From contig OX597825.1 in assembly GCA_951406725.2 (NCBI GenBank), positions 39,618,001-39,682,000 of the forward strand: a stretch of DNA of 64,000 bases, written 5' to 3'. The stretch comes from Octopus vulgaris (lineage: Eukaryota). Under the pieces are notes generated by a model. That model ran no database searches. It had not been told where the DNA came from and saw only the letters and a program-made list of their open reading frames with translations. Below, in pieces: positions 4,195 through 58,930 of the stretch. Position numbers and translations under genes: made by a program. The stretch's first letter is position 1. Each line of letters opens with the position of its first letter.

Positions 4195-4534
<340 letters not shown>

Positions 4535-4535
<1 letters not shown>

Positions 4536-5500
4536 CAAATCAAAAAAGGAAAATACGCACACTTACATAGTTTTAATATAATTTTTAATATATCGACCGG
4601 TTTTGCTATCGCTATTCATGATATTATATTTTACTTACTTGAATATATATTTTTTTCTTAAGAAGAAATTTTGTCCATGTTGTGTGTAATGAAATTCACG
4701 AGTGAATGACATCACAAGTACATATATAAAGGGAGGTAATTGGCTGTCGTTATTGTTATTGTTGTGGGTAAGGGACATATCTGTTCAGCTTTCGGTAATG
4801 GGAGGGGAATATATATGTTTACAGACAGAGACAAGTTTGAAAAACCTTGTTTAGTGAGGGGATTTATGTACAGTGATGTAATCGTGAATTAAAATATGTA
4901 AAAAGATAAAAGTTGTTTATGCGTGCATATTAAGACGTGTTTTGTATTTTTCACTGAAAAAAATGTCTTTATTTAAACATTCTAGTCGATAGATTGTGTG
5001 TTTGCACTGGTAGAAAAGGAAGACTGTGAAAATCTGTTTAATTTTATCTGTACATTTTTCTTTATGTTCACTGAGAGGAATTTGTCTGTATTGCGGGAAA
5101 CGGATTTGCTTCTTTATGTAGATTGGGTTTCTTTCTCAAGGTCATACTCGTTTGTCCAATATAGTTGTGTCCGCAACCCGAGCAGGTTATTACATAAATT
5201 AGGTTCTCAGAGGCACAAGTGAAACTAGTTTTAATTGTGAACCTCTGCCCTTATTTGAAAAGGAAATCCGAGCCTTCAAGCAGGTTGGGGCCGGTTCCAC
5301 AATTTGGGAGTCCACATTTTTCAACCCTTGGTTTCGTAGTTGTTTTGTAAAGCATTTGTTTGTAGTCTCTTTAGCGATTTGCCTTGTTATTTCTTTGCAT
5401 TTGATGAGTTTGTGTGTCTTCAGGATGTCGTTCATTTTCGGATTTCTTGTTCTGAAATCAAGAGTTTGCACAATAGTGCTAAATGCCTCACTGTTTCTGA
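4535..5500 (-). mobile_element. Penelope-like element 3' fragment (GIY-YIG endonuclease plus terminal repeat)
   Basis: The minus strand at ~5130-5200 translates IYVITCSGCGHNYIGQTSMTLRK (GIY-YIG). The terminal segment 4540-4730 recurs in opposite orientation at 58680-58875. Confidence 0.85.
4590..4624 (-). ncRNA. Minimal hammerhead-like motif, A3-U8 core variant (G12 mutated in this copy)
   Basis: Minus strand reads ATATC-ATGAATA-GC gata GC-AAAA-CCGG-TC-GATAT. Helix I is ATATC/GATAT and helix III is the palindrome ACCGGT. Confidence 0.5.
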
Positions 5501-13565: not shown

Positions 13566-13603
<38 letters not shown>

Positions 13604-13604
13604 G

Positions 13605-14160
13605 AAAATAGTAAAAAGTGAAAAAACTACAGAAGGCTTGTTTTAAAAGGTTAAAAAATATATATTTGTGTCATTATGTCTGAAGAATGTTATAAATTTT
13701 GTTCATACAATGCCATAGTTTTTGAAGAAATGACCGGTTTCCCGTTCAGCTTTTCAAATTTTTTACATCGGTATGTTTATGTTGAGAAGTGTGAAGAGAG
13801 TTCCAGATAAGGGGAGGTAATAAGTGATTTCTTCTGGTGTAAGGGACGTAATCGCTTAATATTTCTTGCCTTTTTTCTGGAGTGAGTTTCTCTGTATAAG
13901 AATGTTGGAATCGTTAAGTTTGGGCTTGTATTTTTCAATGAAGAATGTTTCCTTGTTTAGTCTAATTTGTGTTGGTGTTCCGATAGCACATTGGTAAAAT
14001 GGAAAGATTAAAAGTTGTGGTAGTAGTTGCTTTGCGCATTTCTCAATGTGCTCAGTAAAGGGTATCATTCTGTATTCTGGGAATGCAATCTGTTGTCGAT
14101 GCAGTGTGCATCTACGTCTGAGTGATAGTCCCGTGGACCCCATGTAGTTTTGGTGGCAAT
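13605..14160 (-). mobile_element. Penelope-like 3' end (GIY-YIG C-terminus plus terminal repeat), inverted relative to the adjacent body
   Basis: ORF 13856-14143 reads (YM)GSTGLSLRRRCTLHRQQI...EH...KETFFIEKYKPKLN. It is a near-identical inverted copy of 15345-15700. Confidence 0.85.
13725..13763 (-). ncRNA. Minimal hammerhead motif, U3-A8 variant (helix II mutated)
   Basis: Minus strand reads AAAAAT-TTGAAAA-GC tgaac GG-GAAA-CCGG-TC-ATTTCT. Confidence 0.6.
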
Positions 14161-14164
14161 AATT

Positions 14165-15293
14165 GTGAAACCTAACAATGGGCTACCTGGAAATAATCAT
14201 TTACCAGGAATCTTTATCAATCTTTGGAAACCCCCTCTCTCAATACATAAAAGAGAATTGGAAACGATTCCTGGACGATTGTTTTATACTCTGGAATGAA
14301 AACACAGATAAACTCCTAAAATTCAAAAACCTATTGAACAGCACAAACCCAAATATACAGTTCACAATGGAATCCAAAAAAAGAGCGCCCATTTTTGGAT
14401 ATACTAATTTAAAAAATTAACCTTAAAATAGAAACAGACATTTTTTACCAAGCCACAGACGCCAAACAATACCTACTTTTTGATTCATGCCACCCAAGAT
14501 ACATTAACACACACATCCCCTTCAACCTTGCAAGAAGGATATGCACAATAGTGTCAGAACAAAATACCAGGAACTTTAGACTGCAAGAACTCAAAAACAC
14601 CCTAATTGACAGACATTACCCAGCTCAACTCATAGAGGATGGGATCAGACGTGCAACAGAAATTGACATAGAAACTTTAAGAAAAGTTCAACACAACAAC
14701 ACACATTCCCCGAAAATACTACCTTACATATCCACATACAACCCCAGAAACATAGAAGCCTTCACCATCATCACCCAGAATTTACCAATACTTCATAAGG
14801 ACCCCAAATTAAAGGAAATTCTAAACATACACCAAATCATTAAAAGCTACAAACAACCTAAATCACTTAAAAAGATTCTCACAAAGGCAAAATTGTTTTC
14901 TGAAATTACGGATACAAAAGTTCAAAAATGTGGTAGACTGAACTGTGCAACATGTCCAAACATGCTGAAGGATCAGAATTCACTCTTCAATGTCATGGAA
15001 AGACAGAAATTCACTAGTATCATAACTTTACTTGTGCCTTTCTCCTTTTTGAAAACATAATTTCATGTCATAAAACTGCTCGGGTCATGCCACTAGAATG
15101 AATCGACATGTGGGGTCCACGGATACTATGCGTTTACTTTTCTTTAGGTCTAGTAGATGCACACTTTGCCGAATCGACAACAGATTGCATTCCCAGAATA
15201 CAGAATGAACACCGCTCGTAGTGAGACACACACATTGACGTAAAAACTGCGCACACAGCACACACACACATATACACAATATATATATATATC

Positions 15294-15327
<34 letters not shown>

Positions 15328-15736
15328 GATACACACAACACAAATTTAGACTAAACAAGGAAACATTCTTCATTGAAAAATACACACACAAACACACACG
15401 ATTCCAACATTCTTGTACAGAGAAACTCACTAAAAAAAAAAGGCAAGACATATTAAGCGATTACGTCCCTTACACCGGAAGAAATCACTTATTACCTCTG
15501 GAACTCTCCTCACACTTCTCAACGTAAACATAACGATGTAAGAAATTTGAAAAGCTGAACGCGAAACCGGTCATTTCTTCAAAAACTATGTCATTGTATG
15601 AAATTTATAACATTCTTCTGACATAATGACTCAAATATATATTTTTTAACCTTTTAAAACAAGCCTTCTGTAGTTTTTTCACTTTTTACTATTTTCTATA
15701 TATTCAACCACGTGTTTTCACACACCAACTTTCTCA

Positions 15737-33849: not shown

Positions 33850-35400
33850 GGAATGTTAACAAAAACAAGACGCAGACATGTGGTGTAGACAACGAAAAAT
33901 GTATTAGTTTAACGCTCGGGAATTGAAAAGGTCTTTAATGTTTCGAGCCGACGCTCTTCCACAGAATGGAACACAGAAAGAAACAGGTAAATAAAATAAA
34001 GAATGGGTAGTGGCTAGCGATCTCCCATGGTGAATGGTTGACAGAGGGGTCGCACAGGAGAGCTAGGAAGAGGGGGAGATAATAAAGTGGTGGAGATCAC
34101 AATACGAAGGCCGGCGTGTGTGTATATAACAGCATGTATGTGCCTGTGGAAGAGGACTGGTGATCTTGACGTGTGCGTGTGTGCATGTGTATTTGTGTGG
34201 GCGCTGGTGTGGGGCTAAGAAGTGGTCAGTGCTAGTGTGTACGTGGTGCTGATGTAAAGTGGTATTGTGTGAGATGGTGGTGAGTGGTGTGGTGGTGTAT
34301 GGTGTGTGGTGTTGTTAGGACGTGGGGGACTTAAGTGAAGGGAAAGCAAGGGTGGGGTGTAGTTTAGGCTGAGGGTGGGGTATATGGGAGTTGGTGTAAT
34401 GGATGGATAGGGAAGTTGGGGTTGGATTGTGTAGGGGTGATGTTACAATGGAGGGGTGAAAATGAAAGAAGAGTGGAATGGGAGAAGGTGAGTAGGAGTG
34501 AAGAGAAGAGAGAAGGAGGGCAGGAGTGAAGAGAAGATGTTGGAGTCGGAGCAAGTGAGGAGAGGTGGGTGGGAGGAAGTATATGTGAGAGGAAAAGAGG
34601 AGAGGGGAGGAGAGTTAGATGAAGCGGGGAGGAGAGTTGAGCCCATGTGGGGCAAAAGAGCGAAGATAGAAAACTAATCTCCGTTCACAGCTAAGACGGG
34701 ATTACAGATGACCCCTGTGCAAGAATAATCCGAACACAGACAAGTGTTGCAAAGAAAGACCAGTAGAGCGGAAGTGGCGTGAGACCGTGGTGCCATTGCC
34801 GAGTCGGGTGCCTCGTAGGTGTTCTGCGAATCGGTTAGCCAAGCTGCGTCCCGTTTGCCCGATATATAGAGAAGGGCAGAGAGAGCGCGAGATGCAGTAG
34901 ATGACATTGCTAGGAGTGCAGGTGAAGCAGTTGGTTATATGATAGGTTCGATGATAGGTGCCGGTGAGGAGAGTGGTATTGGAGAGGTAAGGACAAGTGC
35001 AGCAGCGTGGGCGGGAGCAGGGGAACGAGCCGGGTTGGGAGATTAGGTTAGGGAAGAGACTGTGGACCAAGAGGTCTTGTAGGTTGTGGGCACGTTTGAA
35101 GGAGGGGAGGGTCCAGTTAGGGAAGATGTGCAAAGTGGAGCGGTCGAACTGGAGTCGCCAGAAGGCTCGAAGAATGGTGCGTTGGGAGATGAGGAGAAAC
35201 GGGAGGCGGGGGATGTCGCGGTGGGTGCGGTGGCAAGGGCTGATGCACGGTCCACGGAAGTGCTCTAGCAAAGGCGGTGTGAATAGTGGTGAGGGGGATA
35301 GCCATGTAGGATGAAGCGGTGAAGTTATGAACAGATAGAAGAGACGGGCTATAATTACTTGGAGATTGTGGTGAATAAGAAAGAAAGAACATGCATGATT
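33850..35400 (-). mobile_element. Penelope-like element 3' fragment (GIY-YIG)
   Basis: ORF 34702-35457 reads FKRAHNLQDLLVHS, CSRPRCCTC, NVIYCIS..LCPSLYIGQTGRSLANRFAEH. A long pyrimidine-rich 3' region follows on the minus strand. Confidence 0.88.
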
Positions 35401-52292: not shown

Positions 52293-52582
52293 AATGTATA
52301 TTATATAATTGTTGAATATTATATTATATTGTTGAATGTATATTATATAATTGTTGAAATTATAATTCATATCTCTCTATTTAATGCCTCGGATTTTACC
52401 GAAAAAAAGCATGTTGTTTGCTGATTTTAACCCACGCTGGTGGAAGGGGGAGAGCAGAAATTCTTCGCTTGCATGTTCGAATTTGCTGGCACTGTTAGTT
52501 TCGAGTAGATCTTCGGAGACGATGGGAAGCCGAAAAGGTATGCTCCTACTTTCAGTGTTTTCAAATCCAAACCAGGGAGTTC

Positions 52583-52634
52583 TGAGCTGATGATAGAAAT
52601 GTCTTTTTGACTAATCTTGAAACGTACGTTCTCA
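52583..52634 (+). ncRNA. Type I hammerhead motif (second family), copy 1
   Basis: TGAG-CTGATGA-tagaaatgtc ttttt gactaatctt-GAAA-CGTACG-TT^CTCA has palindromic helix III ACGTACGT and an imperfect helix II. Confidence 0.68.
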
Positions 52635-53140
52635 AATAACCTTTGCATTTGATTTTTTAATGTTTCTACCCTCATACTTTCGTGAGTTGAATTGAGCAAA
52701 CACTTTACGAGAGAGATTTTCTTTAAGTATTGGAAATAGTTTTTAAAAAAGTTTTTTTAGCTGCTATTTCTAATGAGTTCAGTATGCGGCAAAGTAATTT
52801 ATTTTACTAAGCCCTTTTATATAATGTAATAATTTGAATTCGCCTTAAATGGTCCCTTTGCATACTGAATACTTGGTGAAATTGATTAATTAATTAATTT
52901 TACCCTCAATTGTTGAAATTATAATTCATATCTCTCTATTTAATGCCTCGGATTTTACCGAAAAAAAGCATGTTGTTTGCTGATTTTAACCCACGCTGGT
53001 GGAAGGGGAGAGCAGAAATTCTTCGCTTGCATGTTCGAATTTGCTGGCACTGTTAGTTTCGAGTAGATCTTCGGAGACGATGGGAAGCCGAAAAGGTATG
53101 CTCCTACTTTCAGTGTTTTCAAATCCAAACCAGGGAGTTC

Positions 53141-53192
53141 TGAGCTGATGATAGAAATGTCTTTTTGACTAATCTTGAAACGTACGTTCTCA
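53141..53192 (+). ncRNA. Type I hammerhead motif (second family), copy 2
   Basis: Identical to 52583-52634. Confidence 0.68.
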
Positions 53193-53375
53193 AATAACCT
53201 TTGCATTTGATTTTTTAACGTTTCTACCCTCATACTTTCGTGAGTTGAATTGAGCAAACACTTTACGAGAGAGATTTTCTTTAAGTATTGGAAATAGTTT
53301 TTAAAAAAGTTTTTTTAGCTGCTATTTCTAATGAGTTCAGTATGCGGCAAAGTAATTTATTTTACTAAGCCCTTT

Positions 53376-53453
<78 letters not shown>

Positions 53454-57674: not shown

Positions 57675-58679
57675 GTCTATCTATCTGTCATCTATCTATT
57701 TATTTAAGTAAACATATAGGCAATGGCAAAACGCCGAAGCAGCCATCCTAAGTCTCATCATGCTAGCCAAAGATCTAGTAATCTACTTCAGAATAACAGA
57801 GCCTTCTCATGTCTTATAGAGAGTTCTGGAGATAGTTCACATGAAGAGATGCGTACCTGCTTAAGAAGTGACCGTTGCTGGACTATATACATGTGTGTGT
57901 AGTGCGCGATTTTGTGTGTGATTGTGTTATGAGAGTATGCGTGTGTGTGCATGTAGAGAGAGTGAGAGAGAGAGAATAATAGATCGATACATTCATGAAG
58001 AAATTATATAACTCGCATACATATAGAAAGTATACTTATATACATGGCTGCGTGTGTATGTGTGTGTGTCTGTCACTCTGTCTGTGTGTGCTTAGGTGTG
58101 TATATAAGATAATGCAAAAAACTAATTTAGCGTCAAATTTTCATTCGTTACTATTGTGATTGTTTATTTCTATATTAATAGATATTGATATGAGTAATAC
58201 GAGTGTGCCTACTGGTGTTTCTCTTGTGATTGTACAAACTTGATTTAGGATGTGTGAGTCTATATATAGTTTTTTACTTACGTAAAATATGAACTGCCAA
58301 TAGGCACGCGTGTGCTCTAGCGTCGAGTATGGCGACAGTTTATGTCTTCTGACCTCAAAGTCAGAAATCTTATAACAATGATCTTCCTAAATTACCATGC
58401 CTGCTACCCGCTAGCTTTCCACTGAGCGAACGATGCCTTCCGACATCAAAGTCAGAGATGTTACATCAACGATGCTAGCTTTCCTCAATGCTTTCCGACC
58501 TCACCAAATCTGAAAAATCTGTGGTTGTTTCTAAATAGAATTATTCATATATATAGCAAGCTAATTTCAACGTTTTTGTTCCTCAAAGTTACAAGTATAT
58601 ATAAAAAAAGGTGATTTTAATAGAGTGGAAAAGTACCAAATGATAAAGCAGTCATCTAGGTGTCTCTTCCAATTTTCTC

Positions 58680-58875
58680 TTTTATATCTACTTGTGAAAT
58701 CATTCACTCGTGAATTTCATCACATCTCACACATCATGGACAAAATGTCTTCTTAAGAAAAAATACATATTCAAATAAGTAAAACATAATATCATGAATA
58801 GCGATAGCGATACCGGTCGGTATATCAAAAGTTATATTAAAACTATGTAAGTGTGCGTATTTTCCTTTTTTAACT
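58680..58875 (+). mobile_element. Solo Penelope-like terminal repeat fragment
   Basis: Reverse-complement homolog of 4540-4730. Confidence 0.75.
58789..58823 (+). ncRNA. Minimal hammerhead-like motif, A3-U8 variant (A14 mutated in this copy)
   Basis: ATATC-ATGAATA-GC gata GC-GATA-CCGG-TC-GGTAT. Confidence 0.5.
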
Positions 58876-58930
58876 TATATACATTACCACTCACCGTGTT
58901 GGGATAATCGAAATTCCTCTTTTCTGTTGC

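Follow-up and report, generated by a model that had tools for sequence, protein, structure and literature searches.

The pair between positions 3 and 8 in a hammerhead ribozyme (HHR), C3-G8 in its canonical form, came from the crystal structure of the full-length hammerhead and has been tested by laboratory swaps. Przybilski and Hammann reportedly found in 2007 that all four 3-8 pairs are cleavage-competent in vitro, with a preference for a pyrimidine at position 3 in one ribozyme. Among natural hammerheads, covariation from C3-G8 to U3-A8 was described by Perreault et al. 2011 (PMC3088659), in the text of which A3-U8 and G3-C8 are absent. The closest described systems are the minimal type I hammerheads of Penelope-like elements (PLEs), including the U3-A8 Cercyon variant of Schistosoma mansoni (Cervera & De la Peña 2014, PMC4209133). 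The hammerhead family of our study is like them in being type I, in its location in the terminal repeat and in having G10.1-C11.1. The palindromic helix III for dimers, the mostly single 5'-truncated copies, the inverted pairs and the natural U3-A8 core described there are also common to both. Both the ribozyme and the type of element of which the A3-U8 motif is a variant were known before, and the U3-A8 form has been published.

In the window, which is the whole 64-kb stretch of octopus DNA analysed here, the original prediction had placed two A3/U8 motifs with a different single GAAA defect in each. Both motifs were found at exactly the predicted coordinates:

4590..4624, minus strand: hammerhead copy 1, reading ATATC ATGAATA GC gata GC AAAA CCGG TC GATAT
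4624-4620/4594-4590, minus strand: helix I of copy 1, with A3 at 4619, U8 at 4614, helix II as GC/GC and CCGG at 4600-4597
4595, minus strand: C17 of copy 1, after which the cut is predicted
58789..58823, plus strand: hammerhead copy 2, reading ATATC ATGAATA GC gata GC GATA CCGG TC GGTAT
58794 and 58799, plus strand: A3 and U8 of copy 2, with the predicted cut after C17 at 58818

In both copies, ATATC forms the 5' strand of helix I and is followed by A3 U4 G5 A6 A7 U8 A9. The second half of the family motif consists of a 2-bp helix II with the loop GATA, then G12 A13 A14 A15.1, CCGG and U16.1 C17, and GATAT forms the 3' strand of helix I. The two defects are indeed different, as G12 (4604) is lost in copy 1 by a CG-to-CA change and A14 (58811) is lost in copy 2, where one helix I pair has also turned into U.G. 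The copies are alike over ~290-330 bp at 78% identity. Judged from the sequence, both motifs are decayed copies of a hammerhead, predicted to be of type I and of the dimer type, that lies in the 3' end of a PLE. The window copies are dead, each having lost one core base after insertion. The Rfam hammerhead models gave no match in the 64-kb window at E up to 10 (best 150 of 154 rows).

The elements carrying the two motifs are composed of the following features:

4504..5499, minus strand: 5'-truncated A3-U8 Penelope-like element (ORF end and 3' UTR/pLTR), 86% over 1005 nt to the long copy L068
5007..5498, minus strand: broken coding stretch for RT thumb, CX4CxxC linker and GIY-YIG with frameshifts and stops, tblastn identity of 79-80% to the family protein
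58687..58879, plus strand: short 5'-truncated copy with 3' UTR only, 86% to L068
58880..58933, plus strand: optional ~54-nt 3' tail and then (TA)n, from the comparison of 3' ends
58636..58681, minus strand: inverted piece of the RT region directly adjoining copy 2 at its 5' end, 85% identical to the RT DNA of L068 over 46 nt

The element at 4504..5499 ends in (TA)n without the optional tail, and copy 1 sits ~310 nt behind its broken GIY-YIG coding end; in most family copies the motif lies ~270-350 nt past the end of the frame. Copy 2 is a ~200-nt 5'-truncated piece with the tail, and the fragment abutting it is a typical inverted piece of a PLE. The motif had been expected downstream of GIY-YIG, which is seen directly for copy 1, whereas copy 2 has no GIY-YIG. 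The ~54-nt tail was present in 35 of the 79 distinct 3' ends examined, and the family copies have a fixed 3' end and variable 5' ends. Long copies encode an RT with the DKG motif, a CX4CxxC linker and then a C-terminal GIY-YIG with CCHH, which is the order of an EN+ Penelope-like element, and Pfam found RVT_1 and GIY-YIG in sister-family ORFs. Moreover, 5' truncation, inverted partner copies, the optional tail and (TA)n targets, all of them EN+ PLE hallmarks, are present, the last three being described as such for PLEs (PMC8557442; PMC11167929). The linker reads CGRPNCGTC and has the CX2-5CxxC form of Neptune, a form common to Neptune and Nematis (PMC8557442). The genome shows what had been proposed from two damaged copies, a related Penelope family whose ancestral hammerhead had A3-U8 and GAAA. 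The family looks extinct, because its copies are ~8-14% apart and the longest open frame has 635 aa (L203); no copy with a complete ORF was found among those examined.

The genome searched comprises 2.8 Gb in 227 contigs. An exact 25-mer containing A3, U8 and GAAA gave 326 matches genome-wide and 0 in the control. For a set of 30 copies (one with a deletion and three being segmental duplicates), nothing but the sequence downstream of the motif was used for selection; GAAA was found in 27 of them, A3 in 28 and U8 in 29. The inferred GAAA ancestor is borne out by these copies and by the exact matches; a consensus lacking GAAA had been named as the adverse outcome, and the family majority has GAAA. 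The family majority carries the type I core (U4 G5 A6 N7/A9, G12 A13 A14, A15.1-U16.1 and H17) with A3 and U8 in place of the literal consensus C3 and G8. The same core is kept in loci chosen without the motif, and the window copies each deviate from it at one position. In contigs of four public runs with four organism codes, no variant at 1% or above was found at positions 3 or 8 (places 1577 and 1572), and in the same contigs there is variation in loop II, at N7, at CpG sites and in one pair of helix I. Among dead copies of one family, positions 3 and 8 mutate singly at ~1-3%. Independent variation of the two positions among copies had been put forward as evidence against the pairing; this was mis-aimed, since such single changes belong to the within-family level and the covariation is found between families.

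The window also contains hammerheads with other 3-8 pairs:

14097..15702, plus strand: copy of a PLE related to the A3-U8 family (52% aa, 68% nt), its U3-A8 hammerhead lying at 15541-15578
13598..14115, minus strand: inverted partner of the U3-A8 element, with a hammerhead at 13763-13726 in which C11.1 is mutated
52583..52634, plus strand: C3-G8 type I hammerhead-like motif with helix III CGTACG, in a 559-bp tandem unit
53141-53192, plus strand: second C3-G8 copy in the tandem unit

The U3-A8 cores lie at 15547 (plus) and 13757 (minus), and the C3-G8 cores at 52587 and 53145 (both plus). The 559-bp tandem unit with the C3-G8 motif (52349-53386) is retrozyme-like and has a (TA)n end, and a PLE protein match was looked for in this repeat and none was found. 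The C3-G8 motif of the window is outside this Penelope lineage; its helix III is different, it lies in a tandem repeat and there is no PLE protein match. All three cores claimed to coexist in the window are therefore present, but the C3-G8 core does not belong to the Penelope lineage. At 34804-35097 on the minus strand lie the remains of a distant GIY-YIG (30% aa), which belong to another Penelope-like family.

For a genome census, each of the 16 states of positions 3 and 8 was searched with a pattern that fixed only the intact core, G10.1-C11.1 and helix III as CCGG. It gave 7384 matches, 6868 with a Watson-Crick pair at 3-8 and 516 others, against 1-12 per pattern in the controls; copy number is reflected in these counts, and neither helix III types other than CCGG nor a young family with GAAAA are caught by the pattern. 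U3-A8 accounted for 5438 matches, A3-U8 for 1210, and G3-C8 and C3-G8 for 110 each. A3 was found with a non-U8 base in 104 matches and U8 with a non-A3 base in 64, the states with neither A3 nor U8 numbering 6006. About half of the 516 non-Watson-Crick matches belong to U3·G8 wobble families, which are young and multi-copy and make up 84 of the first 100 listed G/U-G/U matches (282 in all). The other mismatches listed are single mutants that occur here and there in the big families. A3-U8 had been predicted as a third pairing; it is real, but further pairings exist in G3-C8 and the young U3·G8. Of the 100 G3-C8 matches listed, 97 have A17, 3 have U17 and none has C17, a bias that fits avoidance of a G3-C17 trap (PMC3884650) but comes from one clade. 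A general rule that positions 3 and 17 avoid pairing fails, as the largest U3-A8 family has A17.

Several families deserve separate mention. A young, homogeneous U3·G8 family nested in the U3-A8 clade (L151, L152, L153) has an intact 775-aa RT-EN frame in L152 and an upstream frame of 483 aa in L151; in this youngest U3·G8 family, helix I is without the 1.1-2.1 pair next to the cut site. Another young PLE family (L217-L230) with many open frames of ~753 aa has a U3-A8 hammerhead reading GAAAA, which is either an extra A or, in the other register, G17. Tandem, direct and inverted arrays of 359-360 bp (L130, L165, L166) carry a C3-G8/CCGG hammerhead whose helices I and II resemble those of a U3-A8 family (L128), possibly reflecting a further 3-8 swap. 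Three G3-C8 copies (L146-L148) are nearly identical, carry a deletion inside the RT and sit in a cluster on one chromosome; they are a non-autonomous derivative or a segmental duplication. When metagenomes and viruses were scanned for the A3-U8 pattern, a helix I of at least 4 bp together with a helix II of at least 2 bp was present in 4 of 123 loci among the matches listed, which is near chance. One metagenome contig (L312) has an A3-U8 motif with a 4-bp helix I and a 5-bp helix II and may be due to chance or to a stray eukaryotic element.

The predicted natural covariation of positions 3 and 8 was borne out between families by the census, by selected representatives and by a clade chosen through its endonuclease DNA. 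In 32 representatives, 92.7% of cells pair and the covariation score is 0.873 as compared to 0.187 when shuffled and at most 0.22 when slid, the set being hand-picked and the score inflated by relatedness. Helix I is paired in 91% of cells with all 5 pairs changing on both sides, 10.2-11.2 covaries, and 3-8 pairs in 32/32; helix I and 10.2-11.2 were absent from the search pattern and are thus independent of it. One of the 10 A-U rows of this set is a lone copy (L089), so that a third A3-U8 origin inside the U3-A8 clade was rejected as a family. In 30 loci chosen by the endonuclease DNA of a G3-C8 copy, the motif could be located in 24 (6 were without it), giving 16 A3-U8, 5 G3-C8, 2 A·A, 1 A·C and 0 G·U. 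A second endonuclease-selected set of 30 gave 15 A3-U8, 3 single mutants, 1 deletion and 11 without a locatable motif. The A3-U8 and G3-C8 sister subfamilies differ in 6 of 712 columns, two of which are positions 3 and 8; once position 3 has changed, one of the five other diagnostic changes would fall on 8 by chance with a probability of ~0.7% (~5/711).

On a DNA tree of 38 endonuclease-end rows, 6 state changes at 3-8 are needed. These rows were drawn from ~135 motif records after dropping near-duplicates, three nested mis-associations and rows whose coding DNA was not contiguous, and the tree is unrooted and gives no direction or number of pyrimidine/purine flips. The window family belongs to a group of 13 A3-U8 rows (82/96). 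A further two rows with A3-U8 fall within the G3-C8 group (100/100), and U3·G8 branches from within U3-A8. The G3-C8 rows also group on a tree without the ribozyme columns (support 79/87, not starred). A single A3-U8 clade was rejected (p-AU 2e-6). A single clade of the purine-3 families is weakly rejected by the DNA tree (p-AU 0.029), and the protein trees disagree on a single purine-3 origin, which is recovered when the tree is threaded on an A3-U8 master (0.995) and not on another master.

The motif can be modelled as a minimal type I hammerhead in the PLE 3' terminal repeat with A-U as its core 3-8 pair. Unconstrained RNAcofold of two family motifs gave the exact double hammerhead at -15.3 kcal/mol, with two helices I, two helices II and a 6-bp ACCGGU duplex. 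The monomer hammerhead is at +2.5 kcal/mol, and its helix III cannot close. All three helices around the core have their indication, as helix I and 10.2-11.2 covary and helix III forms in the predicted dimer. The double hammerhead is likely formed through the ACCGGU palindrome, and this predicted cofold matches the dimer model for PLE hammerheads (PMC4209133; PMC6765202). Helix II has only 2 bp, its 4-nt loop II varies and no contact between loops I and II is apparent. Cutting would occur after C17 and would be slow or helped by the protein of the element; a PLE hammerhead has been described to cut only with its protein present (PMC11167929; PMC8495972), and C3G/G8C double mutants made in the laboratory partly restore cutting in such a hammerhead (PMC11167929). 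Selection in the active lineage may have kept 3 and 8 paired, with A-U and G-C interconverted by two transitions through a likely G.U wobble step, as U-A and U.G appear to have done. The possible role is the processing of tandem read-through transcripts. On the modelled fold and the covariation, it is probable that the active ancestors had a catalytically competent dimer ribozyme which was slow or protein-assisted.

An alternative is that the fold was retained because it serves the RT-endonuclease as a signal, for binding or for folding, near the start sites of reverse transcription, with negligible cutting and any 3-8 pair that keeps the fold being accepted. It would suit the location of the motif, 60-120 nt from the two 3' ends of the element, and the genomic 5' ends, as 0 of the 30 downstream-selected copies start at the predicted cut and a further check of 5' ends showed no excess there. 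Catalytic HHR mutants did not impair insertion in vitro in the work of PMC11167929, in which no RNA-seq reads ended at the cut. The odd junctions of young families point the same way; the constraint may be loose, because the youngest U3·G8 family is without the 1.1-2.1 pair and another young family reads GAAAA. However, the catalytic positions G5, A6, A9, G12, A13, A14 and H17 keep their canonical bases in loci that were selected through the protein or the endonuclease DNA instead of the motif, and we consider the signal explanation unlikely. That a few master elements fixed the 3/8 changes by chance in an already dispensable ribozyme is more improbable still: the few independent events (6 on 38 rows), census counts inflated by copy number and an A3-U8 double change occurring as a lone copy in a U3-A8 background would agree with it, but every multi-copy state pairs (four Watson-Crick and one wobble), no unpairable family is repeated among the mismatch matches listed, a chance hit on position 8 in the A-U/G-C sister pair is rare (~5/711) and helix I covaries too.

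Within the reading of a competent dimer ribozyme, a wider scenario is put forward only tentatively from the sequence comparisons. The Penelope elements of one genome might have taken 3-8 through all four Watson-Crick pairs and an intermediate wobble without losing activity, which would give the first natural purine-3/pyrimidine-8 hammerheads, slow and protein-gated and with position 17 co-adapted (A17 in G3 families and no G3-C17 trap). A natural series within a single lineage that comprises A-U, G-C, U-A, C-G and the wobble U·G amounts to phylogenetic proof of the 3-8 pair, and the covariation is evidence of selection on the active fold in PLE hammerheads. Standard descriptors (CUGANGA) miss such motifs, the canonical C3-G8 making up 110 of 7384 matches with a CCGG helix III; hammerheads are therefore undercounted in such genomes, and a 'no HHR' call likewise understates their number. 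Further, sister pairs that differ at little else than 3 and 8 can be used as they are for assay constructs.

A full-text literature search, the text of Cervera Fig. S3 and Craig File S2 yielded no natural A3-U8 or G3-C8, the large PLE-hammerhead survey of Lünse et al. 2017, figures and bioRxiv supplements being outside this scope, and the novelty of both as first natural examples is provisional. Unlike the hammerheads of PMC4209133, those described here have a purine at 3 and a pyrimidine at 8 (A-U, G-C), which are absent from the Fig. S3 rows as text, and their helix II has only 2 bp with no extra base between 9 and 10.1. The element itself is like the Neptune/Nematis-type EN+ PLEs (Craig et al. 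2021, PMC8557442) in having an RT and then a C-terminal GIY-YIG, GxKF and DKG motifs, a CX4CxxC linker, CCHH and (TA)n targets. This likeness is one of motifs rather than of clade placement with reference sequences, and the hammerheads of Craig File S2 (PMC8557442) are all C3-G8. It also resembles PAc, a Poseidon element of Anolis (Frangieh et al. 2024, PMC11167929), as both are PLEs with a hammerhead and an optional 3' tail from two RT start sites. PAc belongs to the Poseidon clade (PMC11167929), whereas the octopus element has the CX2-5CxxC linker; and G3-C8, a partly active laboratory mutant in PAc (PMC11167929), is natural in this genome.
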